Positions 7,307 to 57,888 are shown, counted from the first letter of the whole stretch. The stretch is 63,498 nt of DNA, filler included, from 9 parts of 9 records of this genome joined end to end with filler, not necessarily neighbours in it; one strand, 5' to 3'. Made by a program: numbers and translations. Notes: generated from the sequence alone by a model not told the origin.

Positions 7307-7406
7307 NNNNNNNNNNNNNNNNNNNNNNNNNNNNNNNNNNNNNNNNNNNNTTAATTAATTAANNNNNNNNNNNNNNNNNNNNNNNNNNNNNNNNNNNNNN
7401 NNNNNN
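7307..7406. other. artificial contig spacer
   Basis: N44-TTAATTAATTAA-N44 (stops in all six frames). Confidence 0.99.
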
Positions 7407-8531
7407 GGAACATCACCGCATGTATGAGCAGTATCATCCTCTCGGGATTGTCGGCATCGTGACCGCTTTCAACTTCCCGGTGGCGCCGTGGGCGTGGAAC
7501 GCCATGATCGCCGCAATTTGCGGCAATGTTTCGATCTGGAAGCCGGCAACGCAGGTTCCCTTTCCGCTATTGCCACCCAGAAGATTGTCGGCAAGGTTCT
7601 CAAGGAAAATGGTCTGCCCGACGGCATCTTTTCTCTGGTCATCGGGGAGGGCTCCGTTATCGGCGAATCCCTGCTCAACGATCGCCGGATCCCCCTCATC
7701 TCCTTCACCGGGTCAGTGCCGGTCGGCCGTCATGCCGCCGAGGTTGTGGCCAAGCGCTTGGGGAGAACCATTCTTGAGTTGAGCGGCAACAATGCGATTA
7801 TCCTGACGCAGCATGCCGATCTCAAACTGGCCCTTCCAGCCGTTGTATTCAGCGCGGTGGGAACGGCTGGACAACGTTGCACCACGACCCGCCGTCTTAT
7901 TATCCATGAGGCGATTTATGAGAAGGTCAAGCTGGCTTTGACCAAAGCCTATCAGGGGTTGCGTATTGGCGATCCCCTCGACGAAAAAAATCATGTCGGG
8001 CCGCTGATCGGGCTTGAGGCGGTTGCCTGTTTCAACAAGGCTCTTGAAGCTGTCAGGGAGCAGGGCGGTAAACTGATTTTCGGCGGTGAAAACTTTTCCG
8101 GGGAGGGCTACGAGTCGGGATGCTATGTGGTTCCCGCGCTTGCAGAGGCGAAAAATCACTTTCCCATTGTGCAGGCCGAAACCTTTGGCCCGATCCTTTA
8201 CCTGATCAAGTACCAGGGGGCGGTCTCCAACGCCATCGCTCTTCAGAATGACGTCAAGCAGGGGCTTTCCTCCGCCATTTTCACGACCGATATGCGCGAG
8301 GCCGAAGAATTCCTGTCCCAGACTGGTTCCGACTGCGGCCTCGCCAACGTCAATATCGGCACTTCCGGCGCCGAAATCGGGGGGGCTTTTGGCGGTGAGA
8401 AGGAAACCGGCGGCGGCCGGGAGTCAGGCTCCGATGTATGGAAGGCCTATATGCGGCGTCAGACCGTGACCATCAACTACGGGACGGAAATGCCGCTGGC
8501 GCAGGGGATCAAGTTTGATGTTGAATCCTGA
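7407..8531 (+). CDS. pcd: ALDH7-type aldehyde dehydrogenase (piperideine-6-carboxylate/aminoadipate semialdehyde dehydrogenase), 5' truncated, frameshift near 7558
   Basis: [64 protein letters not shown]; adjacent to lat. Confidence 0.88.
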
Positions 8532-8580
8532 TTTGTCGCTTTCGTGGTAAATTCACTCCCAAGTTCGACAGACTTTCAGC

Positions 8581-9952
8581 ATGGAGGTGCCGGTGATTCA
8601 ACCTCATGAGGTCAAAAAAACTCTTTCCCGACATATGTTGACCGAAGGTTTCGACATGATCCTCGATCTGGATAAATCCGAAGGATCCTGGTTCGTTGAT
8701 CAGAGAAACGGGGATCGCTACCTCGATTTTTTCAGCATGTACGCTTCCATGGCTGTGGGCTACAACCACCCTAAGCTGGTGGCGGCCCGCGACCATCTTG
8801 GGCGTCTGGCGATCAACAAACCGTCAAATTCCGATGTCTATACCCAGGCCATGGCGGAATTCGTGGAGACCTTTTCCAGGGTCGGAATTCCGGACTACCT
8901 TCCCCATACCTTCTTTGTCGAAGGGGGAGCTCTGGCCGTGGAAAATGCGTTAAAGACGGCTTTTGACTGGAAAGTCCGGAAAAACGCAACTAACGGCAAC
9001 AAAAGAAATCTTGGTAGCCAGGTTATCCATTTCCGGCAGGCTTTTCACGGCCGCAGTGGCTACACCCTGTCCCTGACCAACACCTTTGATTCCCGCAAAA
9101 TCAAATATTTTCCCAAGTTTGGCTGGCCCCTCATCATCAACCCGAAAATCACCTTTCCTTTCGATCAGCGCAATCTGGACAGGGTGCAGGCGCTGGAGCA
9201 TGAAGCACTTCGGGAAATCGATGAACTCATTGACCGGGAAGGGGACGATATTGCTGCCATCATTATTGAACCGATCCAAGGAGAGGGGGGACAATCATTT
9301 CCGTGCCGAGTTTCTTCAGGAGCTGCGCAGAATCTGTGATGAAAACGATATCCTTTTCATTCTGGATGAGGTCCAGACCGGTGTCGGTCTGACCGGGAGG
9401 TTCTGGGCCCATGAGCATTTCGGGGTACGGCCCGACATCCTTGCTTTCGGCAAGAAGACGCAGGTCTGCGGCATCCTTGCTTCGAGGCGAATCGATGAGG
9501 TGGAAAAGAATGTCTTCAGGGAAAGAAGTCGGATCAGTTCCACCTTCGGCGGCGGTCTTATCGACATGGTTCGCAGCACCCATATCCTGCGCATCATCGA
9601 GGAGGAGAATCTGGTCGAGAATGCTCGTGTCCAGGGAGAGGTCCTGTTGACTGGGATTAAGGAGCTGGCCGGGGAATTCCCCGATCTGGTCTCCAACCCG
9701 CGGGGCCGAGGCCTGATGTGTGCTTTCGACGCGCCGGACAGCGATACCCGCGATCAGATGGTCAAAGCCTTTTTGCGGGCGAAGCTGTTGATGGTCGGCT
9801 GTGGGATCAAGGGCATCCGATTCCGGCCTCACCTGATCGTCACTGCGGATGAAATCAGTGAGGGACTGGGGATAATCCGTGAGGTGCTGAAAAGGGAGAC
9901 TTTGAAACTCTGTAGCTATCGCCGGATCACGATTCCGGGATGCCGCCCATGA
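8581..9952 (+). CDS. lat: L-lysine 6-transaminase (frameshift at G6 9285-9290)
   Basis: YLDFFSMYAS, KPSNSDVY, GALAVENALKTAFDWK, AFHGRSGYTLSLTNT, EPIQGEGGD, DEVQTG, FGKKTQVCG. Confidence 0.92.
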
Positions 9953-11534
9953 CGATTGCCGGAAAACGCTTGCGCTTTGCGAAAAAACTGCAGGAACTCG
10001 AGGTCGGGGATGTTCTCTGGGAGAAAAGCGACCTGCGGAAATTTTCCCGGGACCAGAGTATCTATGAGATCGCACCCCTGACAGTTGTTTTTCCTTCCAG
10101 CCTGGAAGGTCTGCAGAAAGTCATTTCTTTCGCGGCGGCGGAAGAGATTTCCATCACGCCGAGGGGTGGCGCTTCCGGTACCGCCGGGGGTGCGCTTGGC
10201 GAGGGGATCGTCGTGGTCCTGCCGCGAAGCGGATTTTTCGGGACGATCACCGATCTCAGCGAACAAGGTGGTAGTGCCCGGGCTCGGGCCGGAGCAGGAG
10301 TCTGTCACGGCGATTTTCAGAAAGTTCTCAAGGAGCGGGGCTACTTCCTGCCCGCGGATGTCTCCAGCGCTGAAATCAGTCAGATCGGCGGCAACATCGC
10401 CACCAAGGCCAGCGGCCCCCATGCGCTGAGACACGGTTCCATCGACCGATTTCTGGAGGAGGTGGAGTTTTTCACCGACCGGGGCGAACTGGTCAACACC
10501 GCGGACGCAGCCACCATTCCTGCTCGTTTCAAAGAGCCTTTGGCGGATTTGGCACGCCGCATCAGGAACGATGACGCAGCTTGGAATTTTCTGAAAAGAG
10601 AGAAAAGATGAAAATTGCGAGCGGCTACAACCTTTTCGCTTTCATCCGGGAACTTTCTCTGGGGAAGCTGGTGGAACAGCTTATGGCCGGGAGCAACGGA
10701 ACACTCGGATTCCTGACCGGGGCGACGCTGCGGGGCGAGGTCTTTGACCCTCAACGGGCCACCATGCTGATATTCTTCCCTGATTTGCAGGAAGCGGGGC
10801 GGGCTGTTTGTGCCCTCAAGGACAGCGGCGTAGCGGCCATAGAAATCATGAACCGGGAGACGGTTCGCATCCTGATCGCGAAAACCGCTGCAGGAAATGA
10901 GTTTGTGCGGGACGCTCATGCCCTGCTGGTGGAGTTCGTCGGCCGGGAACGGCTGGAGATGATCGAAAAGGTCAGGGCCATACTCAAGGGAGGCCGCTTT
11001 CGGATGCTGGGGGAGCCGGTCGTCGGCCTGAATGACGAGGAAATCGAAAAGCTCTGGAGCATGCGCAAGCAGGTATTGTGGCTGATCCGGAATCCGGCGC
11101 CTCATCTCAGGGCGTTGTCTGTGGTCAATGACGTGGGTGTCCCTCCATCGCACCTGGTAGATTTCCTTGCGGGGGTGGAGGCAATCTTCAAAAAACATAA
11201 CCTTGAAACCATGATTTACGGTCACGCGGGGAGCGGTAACCTCCACCTGCGCCCGCTTTTCGATGTCAAGCGGCCCGGCCTCAAGGGGAGAATTCGGCGT
11301 CTGGCCGATGATGTCTACGAGGAAGTTTTCCGTCACGGTGGGACGGTCTCCGCGGAGCACGGCATCGGCAGGCTGCGGGCAACCTATCTCAGTCGGGAGT
11401 GGGGAGAAAGTCTGTATCATTATATGCAGGAGGTGAAGTCCATTTTTGATCCCTCGGGACTATTCAATCCCGGTGTCATGTTCAGTGACCAGGCTATCAC
11501 GGATCACATGCGGACCGATCTTTCAGACCATTGA
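9949..11534 (+). CDS. FAD-linked 2-hydroxyacid oxidoreductase (VAO/PCMH family; D-2-hydroxyglutarate/D-lactate dehydrogenase-like), frameshift near 10600
   Basis: PRGGASGTAGGALG, IGGNIAT, GSNGTLG, GHAGSGNLH, SAEHGIG, FDPSGLFNPG; ATGA-coupled to lat; no C-terminal Fe-S module. Confidence 0.85.
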
Positions 11535-11563
11535 AGCGAAAGTAAATTCAGGGAGAAACGGTC

Positions 11564-12916
11564 ATGGAAAATGAAAAAGGTTTTTACTGGGAGCGCCATG
11601 CCGAAGTCGAGACAATGTTTCTCAACCTGATCGGCCGTCTTAGCGAAAAAAATACCTGCCTGGGAAACTTTGAAAATAGACTTATCCAGGAGACCAGTTC
11701 GAGGCTGCTTGATTGGGTGGATCACCTCATCGTGAGGGATTCGAAAGAAATCAGGGGAAAACTTGCGAATCTTGGATTCCAACAGCAGGAGGATACAGAG
11801 GCCGAGGCGTTTTCCCATCCGGGAGTTCTGCTGCCGACCATTGTTCTGGCCGATGCTTTTGCGGGGCATGATCCGGGTGTTGCCCTGCGGGTAGAGAGTA
11901 TCGATGCTTTTCTCCAGGCCAATGGTCTGAAGGGCGATATCGAGGGGAGAACCTTCAGCCCGTTTCGGCGGGCTCTGGTTGCCACGGAAAACGAGGTCGC
12001 CTTGTGGGTTGTCGAGCGGCGGGGGACGCTGGGCTACGATCCTATTTTTCCGGAAGATGAATATTTTCAGGACTATATGCAGGGCGTTGCAAGTTGGAGG
12101 ACCCTACCACGGGAGGAAGAGGATGAGGACCGGATTTTCGCGGATATGAGCCGGGTTGCCGGGGATCTTGTGGCCAAATTCGGAGTGGGGCTGGCCGCCC
12201 ACATCGTCTGTCTGTGCGAACGGGAGTACTGGTTGTCCCGCAACCTTGCCGGACGGGTTCAGAAAAAACGCCAGGACGCCTTGGGCGTCGGGTGGGGGAA
12301 TCATGACCACCACACCTTCAGGAGTTCCCGTCGCCATTTTTCAAAACTCATCAACCTCTTTCTGCAACTCGGTTTTCATAAACGGGAGCGTTTTTACGCG
12401 GGCAAGGATGCCGGCTGGGGTGCCCAGGTCATGGAGCATGCCACGGCAGGGCTGGCGCTTTTTCTGGACGTTGACCTGGCGCCCGAGGAGATGGACATTG
12501 ATTTCTCTGTGCAGGAATTGGAGGAGCGCGGGGACCTCGGGACGGTGGGCCTGTGGTGTGCTCTTCATGGTGATTCCATCCTCAAAGCCGGGATGCATCA
12601 TCTGGCGGCACGCTTCGACTTTGAGCGCCTCATTGAGGACGTCGCGAAACATGATGTCCGTTTCATGGCTCCCTTCAGCAACTTCCCCTACCTCAAGCAA
12701 GCTTTCAGTGCTGCGGAAATGTGGAAGGTGGCCCCGGCCAGGGTCCAGAAACTTCTTGATGAAAAGCGCATCAGCGACGAGCAGGCTGGGAAATTTCTGG
12801 ACAGGGGATCGGTCGGCAGTCACCTGGAAAACATCGAGCGGAGAGAAGGCTACAAGGGCTTCAATAAAAAAAACGTTAGCGTTATCATCCGGGAGACCGA
12901 CCCGAGAAAAGCTTGA
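11564..12916 (+). CDS. divergent VOC-fold metalloenzyme, putative HglS/DUF1338-like 2-oxoadipate dioxygenase-decarboxylase
   Basis: Motifs in order HDHHTFRS, GMHHLAA, LKQAFS, GSHLENIERR..GF...NV..II.ET; last gene of the lysine operon. Confidence 0.55.
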   Translation: MENEKGFYWERHAEVETMFLNLIGRLSEKNTCLGNFENRLIQETSSRLLDWVDHLIVRDSKEIRGKLANLGFQQQEDTEAEAFSHPGVLLPTIVLADAFAGHDPGVALRVESIDAFLQANGLKGDIEGRTFSPFRRALVATENEVALWVVERRGTLGYDPIFPEDEYFQDYMQGVASWRTLPREEEDEDRIFADMSRVAGDLVAKFGVGLAAHIVCLCEREYWLSRNLAGRVQKKRQDALGVGWGNHDHHTFRSSRRHFSKLINLFLQLGFHKRERFYAGKDAGWGAQVMEHATAGLALFLDVDLAPEEMDIDFSVQELEERGDLGTVGLWCALHGDSILKAGMHHLAARFDFERLIEDVAKHDVRFMAPFSNFPYLKQAFSAAEMWKVAPARVQKLLDEKRISDEQAGKFLDRGSVGSHLENIERREGYKGFNKKNVSVIIRETDPRKA

Positions 12917-12931
12917 CAGGGGCGGGTCATT

Positions 12932-14236
12932 TTATCCGTTCTGTTCCAGTGTGAAATATCTGTGAATGATATCGTCCAGCTCTTTCTGCAGGGATTCCAT
13001 CTCGCCTCCCCCGTAATCGGCATAAATCTTTGGCGCCAGTTCGACAAAAGTCTGCGTTAGCAGGGGATCAAAGTGGCTTCCGCTCCCCAGTCGGATAATG
13101 GACAGGGTGTTTTCAAGGGTGAAAGGTTCCTTGTAGGGCCGACGGGCCGTAAGCGCGTCAAAAACGTCGACCAAGGCAAAGATTCTCGCTGAAATCGGAA
13201 TGTCTTCCCCCTTCAATCCTTTCAAATAGCCGTTCCCGTCGAATTTCTCATGGTGGCAGCCGACCACTTCCGCAGCATCATCCAGCCAGTTGCAGCGGTT
13301 GACGATGTCGAGGCCGTATTCGACATGGCGCTTCATTTCAGCGAACTCCACCTCATCCAGGCGCCCCGGTTTTAGCAGAATCCGGTCGTGAATGCCTATC
13401 TTCCCCACGTCATGAAGAAATGACCCCTTGATAAGCCCCTGGATAACCTCCCGGTCGAGTCCCAGTTTTTCCGCCAGATGAACCGCATAGAGGGTGACCC
13501 TGAAATTATGGATGTCCGTGTCGCTGTCCCGTTTGGCGATAGCGCTGCCGAGAACCTGAATTGTCTCCATGTTGGCCTGCAAAAGGTCATGGGCCAGGGT
13601 GTTGACCCGGCCGAGGAGGGATGTCAGAAGCGGGTAGAGCAGCGCCGTAGTAGCCAGGATGATGGCCACCGCCAGCAGGATGTTGCGGGCCAGTTTGAAG
13701 CGAAAGTCGCTTATGACTTCCGGTGCCACCGCAAAAGCGCCGATAACCTCCAGAACTGTATTTCCGTCGCTGTCGAGAAGTGGCTGGGTAACAATAACGT
13801 GGGGCATTCCCTCAACCCGGAAAATGTATGTTTTCTGGTTGTGGCGTCCTTTTTCCTCCTTCAGCCGGGTTCTGACAGCTTCCAGCAAGGGGTATGTCGT
13901 CTCAGCGACCTCCGCTACGGGTCGGGAAAAGCTATCGGAGAGGGTGGCCAGTACGAATCTGCCCTGTTGGTGCTTCAACGGGTGTCGGGTGAAGTCATCC
14001 AGCTTTTTTTGCAGCAGATCGGTGTCGAGAGCCTTCCCCTGGTCCAGAAGAGTTACGATTCGGGCATTGAAGCGGGCCACGGAACGCATGGCAATCTCAT
14101 TGACCATCCCGGCAAAGTTGTTCCTGCCAGTGATGTAGGTCATTATTCCCACCAGGGTGGCCATCACCACGGCCACCAGACCCAAGCGCCAGATGAGGGA
14201 TTTGAGCAGAGATTTTTTCGAGATCAACTGCTGCAT
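12932..14236 (-). CDS. membrane-anchored HD-GYP phosphodiesterase
   Basis: Two TM segments flanking a periplasmic domain; HDVGKIG, HHEKFDGNGY, DVFDALTARRPYK. Confidence 0.88.
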   Translation of the reverse strand: MQQLISKKSLLKSLIWRLGLVAVVMATLVGIMTYITGRNNFAGMVNEIAMRSVARFNARIVTLLDQGKALDTDLLQKKLDDFTRHPLKHQQGRFVLATLSDSFSRPVAEVAETTYPLLEAVRTRLKEEKGRHNQKTYIFRVEGMPHVIVTQPLLDSDGNTVLEVIGAFAVAPEVISDFRFKLARNILLAVAIILATTALLYPLLTSLLGRVNTLAHDLLQANMETIQVLGSAIAKRDSDTDIHNFRVTLYAVHLAEKLGLDREVIQGLIKGSFLHDVGKIGIHDRILLKPGRLDEVEFAEMKRHVEYGLDIVNRCNWLDDAAEVVGCHHEKFDGNGYLKGLKGEDIPISARIFALVDVFDALTARRPYKEPFTLENTLSIIRLGSGSHFDPLLTQTFVELAPKIYADYGGGEMESLQKELDDIIHRYFTLEQNG

Positions 14237-14357
14237 TGATTAGCCGTCCTCTCTTATTATTTTGTGACCAATTTTAACAGCTATTTGAATAATTTTGGGT
14301 TTAATGGGCTTTCTTTTTGGAAAATAAAAAGGCCGGATGGAAAGTAATCAACCCGGC

Positions 14358-14391
14358 AAAAAAAGAGGAGGACCGTGCATCACGATCCTCC
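14358..14391 (-). terminator. intrinsic terminator downstream of amtB
   Basis: Minus strand GGAGGATCGTG-ATG-CACGGTCCTCC followed by TCTTTTTTT. Confidence 0.7.
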
Positions 14392-14438
14392 GAGGTAAAG
14401 TTGAAAAAAATTTTTATTGAAGAAAGTAACTAAATTTA

Positions 14439-15569
14439 CTACTGAATCAGGCCATAGCCGTGCTCCCCATGGAGGGATTGATCAAGACCTTCAAGTTCCA
14501 TCTCTCCATCAATTCGGAAGCCCATGGTTTTTTCGATCAGGAAATAGATGATGGCAGTACCGACCGCGGCGATAGCAATGGTTGCCGCCATTCCCATCAG
14601 CTGAACGACAAACTGATCCATGGCGCCCCACCCGGCGCTGTTTTCCGCCGCGCTTTGCATCCAGCTGTCGCGGATGAAAAAGCTCAGGAGCAATACGCCG
14701 AGACCGCTGCCGACGCCGTGGATGCCGAAACAGTCGAGACTGTCGTCATAACCGAGCTTCAGTTTGGCCTGCAGGGCGTAGAAGCAAAGGATGGAGGAGA
14801 GGGCACCGAGGATCATGGCTCCGGAAGGTTGGACGACCCCTGCCGCAGGTGTAATCACGACCAGTCCTGCCAGAATTCCGGATACGAAGCCGAGCGAAGT
14901 CGCTTTTCTGAACTTAACCGCTTCGATGATCATCCACATCAGGCGCCGCTGGCGGCGGAAACTTGAGTCATGGTCAGGGCGCGGGCGGTGTCCAGGCCGC
15001 TCTGGACCGTGGAACCGGCGTTGAAACCGAACCATCCGACCCACAACAGGCCCGCTCCCATCAGGGTCATGACGAGGTTATTTGGGTTCATGGCGGTTTT
15101 CGGATAACCGCGGCGGGCGCCCAGCAGAAGGGCTAACACCAAGGCGCTGATGCCGGCGGAAACGTGAATCACCAGGCCCCCGGCGAGATCAATCACACCC
15201 GCGGCACCGGCATTGAAGAGCCAGCCATCGGCAGCCCATACCCAGTGGCAGAGGGGGCAGTAGATGAACAGAAACCAGAGGGCTATAAAAGCGATATAAC
15301 CTCTGAAATAGACCCGTTCAGCCAGGGCGCCGCTGATCAGGGCCGGGGTGATGATGGCGAATTTTCCCTGGAACATGGCGAGAACATATTCCGGAACACC
15401 GTTGACAATACTATCATCAATGCCTTTGAGGAACAGGTAGTCTCCGTTCCAGCCGACGAAGCCGCCCAGAATGCTGTCTCCGAATGTCAGGGCATAGCCA
15501 CAAACCGCCCACAAAACGCCTATAACCGCCATGGCCACAAAACTGTGCATCATGGTGCCGAGGACATTC
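14439..15569 (-). CDS. amtB: ammonium transporter, 5' truncated, frameshift near 14955
   Basis: FQGKFAIITPALISGA, DLAGGLVIH, LLWVGWFGFNAGS, LAGLVVITPAAG, DDSLDCFGIHG. Confidence 0.95.
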
Positions 15570-15669
15570 NNNNNNNNNNNNNNNNNNNNNNNNNNNNNNN
15601 NNNNNNNNNNNNNTTAATTAATTAANNNNNNNNNNNNNNNNNNNNNNNNNNNNNNNNNNNNNNNNNNNN
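15570..15669. other. artificial contig spacer
   Basis: N44-TTAATTAATTAA-N44. Confidence 0.99.
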
Positions 15670-20761: not shown

Positions 20762-20861
20762 NNNNNNNNNNNNNNNNNNNNNNNNNNNNNNNNNNNNNNN
20801 NNNNNTTAATTAATTAANNNNNNNNNNNNNNNNNNNNNNNNNNNNNNNNNNNNNNNNNNNN
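20762..20861. other. artificial contig spacer
   Basis: N44-TTAATTAATTAA-N44. Confidence 0.99.
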
Positions 20862-28942: not shown

Positions 28943-29042
28943 NNNNNNNNNNNNNNNNNNNNNNNNNNNNNNNNNNNNNNNNNNNNTTAATTAATTAANN
29001 NNNNNNNNNNNNNNNNNNNNNNNNNNNNNNNNNNNNNNNNNN
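28943..29042. other. artificial contig spacer
   Basis: N44-TTAATTAATTAA-N44. Confidence 0.99.
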
Positions 29043-36552: not shown

Positions 36553-36652
36553 NNNNNNNNNNNNNNNNNNNNNNNNNNNNNNNNNNNNNNNNNNNNTTAA
36601 TTAATTAANNNNNNNNNNNNNNNNNNNNNNNNNNNNNNNNNNNNNNNNNNNN
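36553..36652. other. artificial contig spacer
   Basis: N44-TTAATTAATTAA-N44. Confidence 0.99.
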
Positions 36653-43491: not shown

Positions 43492-43591
43492 NNNNNNNNN
43501 NNNNNNNNNNNNNNNNNNNNNNNNNNNNNNNNNNNTTAATTAATTAANNNNNNNNNNNNNNNNNNNNNNNNNNNNNNNNNNNNNNNNNNNN
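43492..43591. other. artificial contig spacer
   Basis: N44-TTAATTAATTAA-N44. Confidence 0.99.
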
Positions 43592-48802: not shown

Positions 48803-48902
48803 NNNNNNNNNNNNNNNNNNNNNNNNNNNNNNNNNNNNNNNNNNNNTTAATTAATTAANNNNNNNNNNNNNNNNNNNNNNNNNNNNNNNNNNNNNNNNNN
48901 NN
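48803..48902. other. artificial contig spacer
   Basis: N44-TTAATTAATTAA-N44. Confidence 0.99.
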
Positions 48903-57788: not shown

Positions 57789-57888
57789 NNNNNNNNNNNN
57801 NNNNNNNNNNNNNNNNNNNNNNNNNNNNNNNNTTAATTAATTAANNNNNNNNNNNNNNNNNNNNNNNNNNNNNNNNNNNNNNNNNNNN
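57789..57888. other. artificial contig spacer
   Basis: N44-TTAATTAATTAA-N44. Confidence 0.99.

Follow-up and report, generated by a model that had tools for sequence, protein, structure and literature searches.

The degradation of lysine through 2-aminoadipate is carried by lat, amaB (pcd) and lysN, then hglS and ydiJ. In the lysine pathway of Pseudomonas putida, HglS was recognised in 2019-2020 as the link that had been missing between 2-oxoadipate and central metabolism (PMC7286885). As reported by Thompson (2020, PMC7286885), its chemistry consumes O2, a peculiarity of the protein is the presence of seven strands in the central VOC domain, and the enzyme is defined by an HHE metal triad and Arg74, which are conserved catalytic and specificity residues. 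Arg74, whose equivalent in FLO7 is Arg64, binds the distal carboxylate of 2-oxoadipate, and the R74A substitution abolishes activity; the same source gives the HHE triad for 86% of PF07063 (DUF1338) proteins and, among the triad-bearing proteins of bacteria, Arg74 for more than 99% (PMC7286885). The window analysed here, meaning the whole stretch of 63,498 bases, contains a gene for a two-domain VOC protein of 450 residues, hereafter X450, which lies at the end of a cassette of lysine-catabolic genes. We propose, with a probability of roughly 0.6, that X450 converts 2-oxoadipate into D-2-hydroxyglutarate in this cassette, as a divergent 2-oxoadipate dioxygenase (decarboxylating) of the HglS type.

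This proposal is based on the predicted fold of X450, on a candidate metal triad and specificity arginine, on the lat-pcd-dehydrogenase cassette, and on the fact that canonical HglS was not found in the carrier genomes tested. In the corresponding route, L-lysine 6-transaminase (LAT) would convert lysine into 2-aminoadipate semialdehyde / L-piperidine-6-carboxylate (P6C), from which Pcd would form 2-aminoadipate, and an aminotransferase encoded outside the cassette would then give 2-oxoadipate. With Fe(II) and O2, X450 would decarboxylate and hydroxylate 2-oxoadipate to D-2-hydroxyglutarate, as HglS does, and the flavin adenine dinucleotide (FAD)-linked dehydrogenase of the cassette would convert the latter into 2-oxoglutarate, feeding back into both transaminations. 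The initial annotation of this DNA had already put forward a divergent HglS-type family completing the lysine route. The fold, the motifs and the gene linkage described below agree with it, with the qualifications that X450 is not a member of the Pfam DUF1338 family by sequence, that profile-profile similarity is not significant, and that the lysine linkage is restricted to one clade.

The four genes, pcd, lat, the FAD-linked dehydrogenase gene and X450, are co-oriented and closely spaced on the + strand between positions 7408 and 12916, and family matches agree with the identities first given to them. Coordinates and lengths of the first three are those obtained after mending of the frameshifts discussed further on. 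The pcd (amaB) gene (7408-8531, +), encoding L-piperidine-6-carboxylate (2-aminoadipate semialdehyde) dehydrogenase, has its 5′ end cut by the contig edge and lacks about 110 N-terminal residues, the match to NF050084 beginning at profile position 111 of 475. NF050084 is the best family for both pieces of the gene (81.6 and 498 bits, profile 111-475, the cut-off of 730 bits being that of a full-length protein and the gene being cut), and addition of the missing C yields a single frame of 374 residues. The lat gene (8581-9915, +; TIGR03251) encodes an L-lysine 6-transaminase of 445 residues, which the unmended text reads as 8581-9339 plus 9086-9952; its halves score 377 bits (profile 1-233) and 336 bits (230-433), with a cut-off of 520.8 bits that applies to a full-length match. 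The third gene (9940-11534, +) encodes a FAD-linked D-2-hydroxyacid dehydrogenase of the GlcD/D-LDH/D2HGDH family, 531 residues long, with the FAD_binding_4 (PF01565) and FAD-oxidase_C (PF02913) domains. We propose that it is a D-2-hydroxyglutarate dehydrogenase. It carries the FAD domains only and falls outside the YdiJ family (NF049975), with 84 + 130 bits for a cut-off of 1350.

X450 (11564-12916, +) is an intact open reading frame (ORF), with a GGGAG ribosome-binding site 9-13 nucleotides upstream of its ATG. Among 8000 candidates scored, at least 4832 homologues were obtained at E ≤ 1e-3; of the 120 listed, the majority have about 450 residues and full-length coverage. X450 is thus a real gene, since it has thousands of homologues that are mostly full length. 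After clustering at 50% identity, at least 669 representatives match at E ≤ 1e-3 and 195 at E ≤ 1e-30, and the family was located in at least 556 confirmed genomic stretches by means of a closer 15-sequence family alignment. The 120 homologues listed are named "hypothetical" or, in three cases, 4-hydroxyphenylpyruvate dioxygenase (HPPD)-like putative hemolysin, a label of the Joint Genome Institute (JGI). A search of the ESM Atlas gave only unnamed clusters of the family itself, and full-text literature searches found no paper describing the family. X450 belongs to a large and unannotated family, which is recognised neither by Pfam and NCBIfam nor by the NCBI names of the listed homologues. 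Two samples of this family were used in what follows, a profile of 57 members for the Pfam, PDB and folding work, and 213 full-length members for the conservation counts.

An AlphaFold2 model of X450, calculated from the 57-sequence alignment, reached a predicted local distance difference test (pLDDT) score of 94.8 and a predicted template modelling (pTM) score of 0.93, and its C-terminal domain displays seven strands. The model was compared with 48,161 PDB representative chains in an exhaustive VIA-align structural search. The three best chains are all DUF1338 proteins, starting with the rice HglS/FLO7 in complex with 2-oxoadipate (6w1k; Z 16.6, 214 residues aligned at a root-mean-square deviation (rmsd) of 3.5 over model residues 202-450), followed by 3iuz (Z 16.4) and 3lho (Z 15.8). 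Over these three chains, 193-214 residues are aligned with rmsd values of 3.0-3.8; identity in structural alignments with the HglS/YdcJ/FLO7 group is 10-18%. Hydroxymandelate synthase (HMS; 2r5v, Z 12.7) and YdcJ (2rjb, Z 12.0) come next, and generic VOC proteins score under 10. A second VIA pass, restricted to the top 1000 chains from Foldseek, gave the same order and placed HglS from P. putida (6w1g/6w1h) at Z 12.3-12.6. The VOC fold with HglS/DUF1338 as nearest solved neighbours, which had been anticipated, is borne out by the Z values of 15.8-16.6, and the model indicates that the C-terminal fold of X450 is a VOC of the DUF1338 type.

Within this C-terminal domain, the translation contains, in the order first announced, the motifs HDHHTFRS, GMHHLAA, YLKQAFS and GSHLENIERR..GF..NV..IIRETD. 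Three segments hold the candidate active-site residues. The first, D248-H249-H250-T251-F252-R253 (12305-12322, +), lies on strand beta-1 (residues 247-253) and carries the candidate first metal histidine, His249, and the candidate substrate arginine, Arg253. The second is the His345-His346 pair (12596-12601, +), a candidate for the second metal histidine, of which His346 opens the strand 346-350. The third, E422-N-I-E-R426 (12827-12841, +), is found on the last strand (residues 420-426), with Glu422 as candidate metal ligand and an arginine at Glu+4. The triad residues are positioned on strands beta-1, beta-5 and beta-7 of the model. In VOC dioxygenases, the ligands are carried by the opening strand of each beta-alpha-beta-beta-beta module and by the final strand, and the candidate ligand strands of X450 are these same strands.

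Conservation of these residues is high among the 213 members: His249 is kept in 206, Arg253 in 204, His345 in 200, His346 in 201, Glu422 in 197 and Arg426 in 206. From E. coli YdcJ and ten Acidobacteriota PF07063 proteins, we derived the DUF1338 motifs D-H-G-A-V-R-T, N-H-A-T, R-Q-T-A-F, Y-E-F-I-T-R and F-D-S-S-N-A-Q-A-I-F-K-M-T. A protein search with YdcJ yielded nothing but near-identical E. coli and Shigella proteins, and tblastn against plasmids recovered long-form YdcJ-like genes only (40-62% identity). The X450 counterparts of the DUF1338 motifs follow in the same order, as D248-H249-H-T-F-R253-S, H345-H346-L-A, K-Q-A-F-S, L-E422-N-I-E-R426 and G-F-N-K-K-N-V-S-V-I-I-R-E-T. The initial annotation had recognised this common order, and it stands, with the two histidines, the glutamate and the arginine at His+4 retained in 92-97% of the members and collinear with DUF1338. 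In particular, Arg253 has the same spacing from the first histidine as in YdcJ and the ten DUF1338 proteins. In an hhalign comparison of the C-terminal half of the family with the DUF1338 profile, all motifs are collinear, at a level that is not significant (P 0.02, probability 2%). The homology of X450 to DUF1338 is therefore argued from structure and motif order, not from sequence statistics. The C-terminal module appears to keep a candidate His/His/Glu metal triad (His249, His346 or His345, and Glu422) together with a candidate carboxylate-binding Arg253. Several other residues are near-invariant in the X450 family and absent from the DUF1338 motifs, namely Arg256 (212/213), Glu219 (210/213), Asp304 (211/213) and His335 (205/213).

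An additional N-terminal domain, expected at about 220 residues, is indeed present with about 200 residues, and its DUF1338-like nature had not been foreseen. When this domain (residues 1-205; 11564-12178, +) was folded alone from 20 sequences (pLDDT 82.3), its best VIA matches were again DUF1338 structures (3lho, Z 11.2; 3iuz, 11.0; 6w1k, 10.2), the next match being at 7.4 and HMS at 6.4. Because the isolated domain also matches DUF1338 structures best, X450 is, according to the models, a tandem of two DUF1338-like modules, the first of which is probably degenerate. The N-terminal module has its own conserved residues, Asp53-His54 (window 11720-11725, +; Asp53 in 204/213 members, His54 in 177/213), His85 (11816-11818; 178/213) and Glu151 (12014-12016; 200/213), all on the + strand. 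The arginine at His+4 is not conserved there, Arg58 being found in 41 of 213 members. The Asp-His pair, the histidine and the glutamate may form a second metal site or be a relic of the duplication. An hhalign comparison of the two halves aligned them collinearly at Asp53-His54 and Asp248-His249, at a non-significant level (P 0.006, probability 6%).

The gene neighbourhoods of X450 were analysed in the best 80 of the at least 556 genomic loci, by tblastn with the genes of the window and by clustering of the neighbouring ORFs; linkage required the same strand and a minimum identity of 40% (dehydrogenase) or 50% (pcd, lat). In 17 of these loci, several of which are short contigs cut just upstream, X450 is adjoined by orthologues of one or more of these three genes. 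All three genes are found in 5 loci, lat and the dehydrogenase in 5, the dehydrogenase only in 4, pcd and lat in 2, and pcd only in one. The linkage predicted among homologues therefore recurs, confined mainly to one clade. The flanks of the cassette are unrelated from one locus to another and encode a histidine kinase, FtsH, a subtilase, a Trk transporter or an inositol monophosphatase. In a tree of 80 rows, consisting of the window and 79 loci (quick IQ-TREE search, with support from the Shimodaira-Hasegawa-like approximate likelihood ratio test (SH-aLRT) only; the truncated locus L045 left out), the cassette-linked X450 proteins group in a single clade (18 rows, SH-aLRT support 99). Sixteen of these rows are cassette-linked, the others being L002, a short contig, and L011. 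This clade mixes Thermodesulfobacteriota (Desulfobacterota) and Nitrospirota, and the X450 of the window is sister to that of a Desulfuromonadales metagenome-assembled genome (MAG), with 73% identity. Two cassette-linked loci lie beyond it, L045 (Acidobacteriota, truncated and not in the tree) and L057 (Aminicenantes, outside the clade).

The distribution of canonical HglS was determined in genomes of relatives, with E. coli as positive control for PF07063 each time. PF07063 was found in none of 10 X450-carrying genomes, nor in any of 301 genomes from the Desulfogranum phylum; among Acidobacteriota, 9 of 251 genomes have it. X450 itself is sporadic, occurring in 2 of the 301 genomes of the Desulfogranum phylum. 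These observations fit a replacement of canonical HglS by X450 where the cassette occurs.

Results from sequence comparison, from gene context and from the nature of the hosts weigh against assigning X450 to HglS-type chemistry. X450 has no sequence match in Pfam-A, NCBIfam or the PDB, even at E 10. PF07063 matches none of the 57 family members at E 1, and the 57-member profile found nothing meaningful in the PDB and no DUF1338 chain. Comparison of the 213-member family profile with DUF1338 profiles by hhalign was not significant (P 0.006-0.04, probability 1-6%), the motifs being nevertheless collinear; the DUF1338 profile was shallow, built from 10 Acidobacteriota proteins with and without YdcJ (10-11 sequences). 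An alignment of the family gave nothing by hhalign against the single YdcJ sequence.

Concerning gene context, none of the three lysine-cassette genes is found beside X450 in 63 of the 80 loci, and LAT above the curated cut-off was detected in none of 10 X450 genomes devoid of an adjacent lat. The lysine linkage corresponds to roughly one evolutionary event, because it falls within a single 18-row clade. In 30 loci, mostly from Chlamydiota, the genes that precede X450 on the same strand are instead ADP-heptose genes (hldD and a hldE-like kinase). No 2-aminoadipate aminotransferase, or second aminotransferase, lies in the cassette at any examined locus, and the initial annotation had rightly placed this enzyme outside the fragment. 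Finally, sequence assigns no substrate to the dehydrogenase of the window, and PDB matches are spread over several enzymes, the orthologue in L001 matching chains of glycolate oxidase, D-LDH and human D2HGDH with E values of 1e-32 to 1e-41.

These context data are also those that would be expected if X450 shared the fold and the O2-dependent 2-oxoacid dioxygenase chemistry of HglS, acting on another 2-oxoacid to give another D-2-hydroxyacid, with the lysine cassette as one recruitment among others. The common denominator across phyla would then be a D-2-hydroxyacid dehydrogenase, of which three different kinds occur near X450. Besides the cassette enzyme, a distant FAD-linked dehydrogenase (25-31% identical to that of the window) is encoded within 10 kb of X450 in 15 further loci, on the opposite strand in 13 of them. 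In L022, the only such locus that was scanned, the protein is YdiJ-like, of the FAD/Fe-S kind and about 946 residues long, with Fe-S and CCG domains and 558 bits to the YdiJ model (cut-off 1350). Of 5 genomes of this type tested (2.3-4.0 Mb), 4 have this distant dehydrogenase as their sole FAD-oxidase_C match, the fifth having a second, broken copy; cassette genomes have 3-6 such matches. In three Calditrichota loci, one conserved gene follows X450, and in L069, the one scanned, it encodes a nicotinamide adenine dinucleotide (NAD)-dependent D-2-hydroxyacid dehydrogenase. The presence of three unrelated kinds of D-2-hydroxyacid dehydrogenase near X450 across phyla is the strongest context evidence that X450 makes a D-2-hydroxyacid. 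The additional invariant charged residues Arg256, Glu219, Asp304 and His335 would also be compatible with a different substrate. In the opposite direction, the arginine at His+4 that is tied to 2-oxoadipate specificity in the HglS work is kept throughout almost the whole family, X450 is located here in a cassette with lat and pcd, downstream of which 2-oxoadipate is the intermediate to be expected, and E. coli YdcJ also lies outside a lysine operon, yet is reported with HglS activity (PMC7286885). Use of another 2-oxoacid is thus plausible, though we hold it to be unlikely for the cassette enzyme.

Two other recurrent arrangements were also seen around X450. The three-gene run ADP-glyceromanno-heptose 6-epimerase, heptose-7-phosphate kinase and X450, for example at L022:2764-6505, is present in the L014-L067 range, including one Verrucomicrobiota locus, and is often preceded by genes for ribosomal protein L25, peptidyl-tRNA hydrolase, L9 and a GHMP kinase. 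At L022:7703-13558 (- strand), the YdiJ-like dehydrogenase gene is followed by astB and astD, 1-2.5 kb downstream of X450, and the organisation is similar in L027, L037 and L049. These two genes, for N-succinylarginine dihydrolase and succinylglutamate-semialdehyde dehydrogenase, belong to the arginine succinyltransferase pathway, and the hosts are environmental Chlamydiota and Verrucomicrobiota.

The main biological tension lies between anaerobe-type hosts and an O2-consuming chemistry. Titles of records carrying X450 name many hosts from Desulfuromonadales, Geobacteraceae, Anaerolineae, Brocadiales and Calditrichota, and others such as Bryobacteraceae and Parachlamydiaceae. We take the first five to be groups of anaerobes, while HglS chemistry needs O2, and DNA near-identical to the cassette contig comes from runs labelled marine sediment metagenomes. 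Bryobacteraceae and Parachlamydiaceae are presumably aerobes or dwellers inside aerobic hosts. All 5 cassette-carrying genomes tested encode a cytochrome bd oxidase, and 4 of these 5 have a gene of the COX1 family, which includes nitric oxide reductases. These terminal oxidases ease the tension and do not remove it.

With such hosts in mind, the tandem-DUF1338 family, found mainly in low-oxygen habitats and in environmental Chlamydiota, might catalyse a different reaction, either by transforming a 2-oxo- or 2-hydroxy-dicarboxylate independently of O2 or by working at two sites, with an N-terminal metal site as the second. The product would pass to the D-2-hydroxyacid dehydrogenases, and the second site would consist of Asp53/His54, His85 and Glu151 (83-96% of members). 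We regard this as doubtful; if true, it would represent a new branch of lysine or 2-oxoacid metabolism in anaerobes. An O2-independent reaction of the VOC type, in which X450 is an isomerase, epimerase or lyase acting on a lysine-derived acid, its residues binding a metal and a carboxylate without oxygen activation, appears improbable. It would account for the many hosts from anaerobic groups and the sediment origin of near-identical DNA, as well as for the absence of canonical HglS from the 301 genomes of the Desulfogranum phylum, and VOC enzymes that are not oxygenases do occur among the lower structural matches (methylmalonyl-CoA epimerase and glyoxalase I, Z 7-9). The nearest structures, however, are by a clear margin the O2-dependent decarboxylating dioxygenases HglS, HMS and HPPD, to whose His/His/Glu and arginine set the candidate residues of X450 correspond, and the terminal oxidases of the cassette genomes and the aerobic nature supposed for some hosts also argue against it.

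Foldseek, unlike VIA, puts HPPD and HMS first (E ~5e-10), and the two-barrel architecture of X450 and the JGI name on 3 of the 120 listed homologues point in the same direction, that of an enzyme acting on an aromatic 2-oxoacid, 4-hydroxyphenylpyruvate dioxygenase-like as this label says. We consider this very improbable. HPPD and HMS obtain VIA Z values of 9-13.5, against 16-17 for DUF1338, and for the N-terminal domain HMS scores 6.4 against 10-11; the motif set agrees with DUF1338, and none of the loci examined showed a neighbour from aromatic catabolism. Pfam matches to the Glyoxalase families are faint and limited to 3 of the 57 members (PF00903 in two and PF13669 in one, E 0.02-0.05), which, with Z values below those of DUF1338, places X450 outside the HPPD/HMS group.

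In the text of the window, and unnoticed in the initial annotation, pcd, lat and the dehydrogenase gene are each split over two reading frames, as is the ammonium transporter gene of the same contig. The cassette contig was aligned with Logan contigs from four public runs (X1-X4), of which X1 is the probable source run, while X2-X4 belong to another study and are labelled marine sediment metagenome; the runs listed for the contig include none of RNA. The X1 Logan contig (15,371 nucleotides) spans 7407-14724 with no base substitution relative to the window, and X450 is identical in both. The Logan sequences contain insertions relative to the window at five sites, namely C (after position 7557), GG (9284), G (9893), A (10593) and G (14941); all are present in X1, GG after 9284 also in X3 and X4, and G after 14941 also in X2 and X3. 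Every insertion site is a homopolymer run, and with the inserted bases pcd, lat, the dehydrogenase gene and the ammonium transporter gene each become a single ORF. The frameshifts are errors of the deposited assembly, because the Logan contigs carry the missing bases and restore single ORFs; the apparent pseudogenes of the window record are thus assembly errors, and the rest of this record probably holds more homopolymer errors of the same kind. The ATGA overlap initially described between lat and the dehydrogenase gene (9949-9952) disappears as well, as it arises at the end of lat that is read in the wrong frame, the true gap being 24 nucleotides. An operon in decay, with three of its four genes as pseudogenes and X450 as a relic, is what the frameshifted text would suggest, and it is ruled out by the missing bases found at all sites in the X1 re-assembly and at two sites in contigs of the other study, by the confinement of the errors to homopolymer runs, with one of the same kind in the ammonium transporter gene, and by the intact orthologous cassettes of other genomes.

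In two other loci, genes look shortened or split: lat of L001 (7195-8415) is a 407-residue ORF in which only 134 residues of the N-terminal half are matched, and the FAD dehydrogenase of L003 (8147-9539) is a 273-residue ORF. This suggests frameshift errors in the L001 and L003 MAG assemblies too.

The window is made of nine contigs with GC contents of 0.33 to 0.575, joined by eight linkers of the form N44-TTAATTAATTAA-N44 at 7307-7406, 15570-15669, 20762-20861, 28943-29042, 36553-36652, 43492-43591, 48803-48902 and 57789-57888. The record resembles a draft bin and may mix organisms, and gene order across linkers carries no meaning. The cassette lies on the second contig (7407-15569; 8,163 bases, GC 0.55). 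Position 7407, at first taken as the start of the operon, is an artificial contig edge, because the window consists of contigs joined by linkers; it directly follows the linker 7307-7406, and pcd is cut there. The X1 Logan contig extends 8,048 nucleotides upstream of this position and should contain the missing 5′ end of pcd. Downstream of X450 and convergent with it, a gene on the - strand (12932-14236) encodes a 434-residue HD-GYP / HD_5 domain protein with an N-terminal hydrophobic segment, probably a signalling protein of the cyclic di-GMP phosphodiesterase type. It is not conserved beside X450 in the other loci examined. The ammonium transporter gene (14439-15568, - strand) loses its frame in the window at the G-run after 14941. 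In scans of the sequence, promoter-like sites (4 found for 4.0 expected) and terminator-like sites (7 found for 9.1 expected) were at chance level.

X450 is of interest both to the annotation of metabolic pathways and to the question of how VOC dioxygenases evolved. Pathway reconstruction tools call the 2-oxoadipate step only through PF07063-type models. If X450 is an HglS isoenzyme, the 2-aminoadipate route of lysine degradation, which now seems broken in Desulfuromonadales, Desulfobulbaceae and Nitrospirota, would be predicted to be complete there, and organisms commonly regarded as anaerobes would possess an O2-requiring catabolic step. The architecture with two DUF1338 modules would moreover link the single-module DUF1338 proteins with the two-barrel HPPD and HMS.

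Compared with the known systems, X450 is closest to HglS/YdcJ/FLO7 (PF07063), which are its nearest solved structures and with which it shares a seven-stranded VOC domain, the order His...Arg(+4), His, Glu...Arg(+4), and the association of the gene with a FAD-linked 2-hydroxyacid dehydrogenase and lysine genes. It differs from them by the absence of detectable sequence similarity, by its tandem N-terminal module, by its own invariant residues Arg256, Glu219, Asp304 and His335, and by its occurrence in phyla where PF07063 was not found in the genomes tested. Like HPPD and HMS, it has an N-terminal module seemingly devoid of the substrate arginine followed by a C-terminal catalytic VOC module; in contrast to them, it has lower structural scores to that group, an N-terminal module that is DUF1338-like, an arginine at His+4, which is a DUF1338 feature, and no aromatic-pathway context. 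With regard to the lat - amaB(pcd) - lysN - hglS - ydiJ route, the predicted intermediates are the same and lat, pcd and a D-2-hydroxyacid dehydrogenase gene are gathered in one cassette. In this cassette, however, the hglS step would be provided by an unrecognised family, the aminoadipate aminotransferase is not included, and the dehydrogenase resembles GlcD and is short, with about 530 residues, whereas YdiJ has about 1000.

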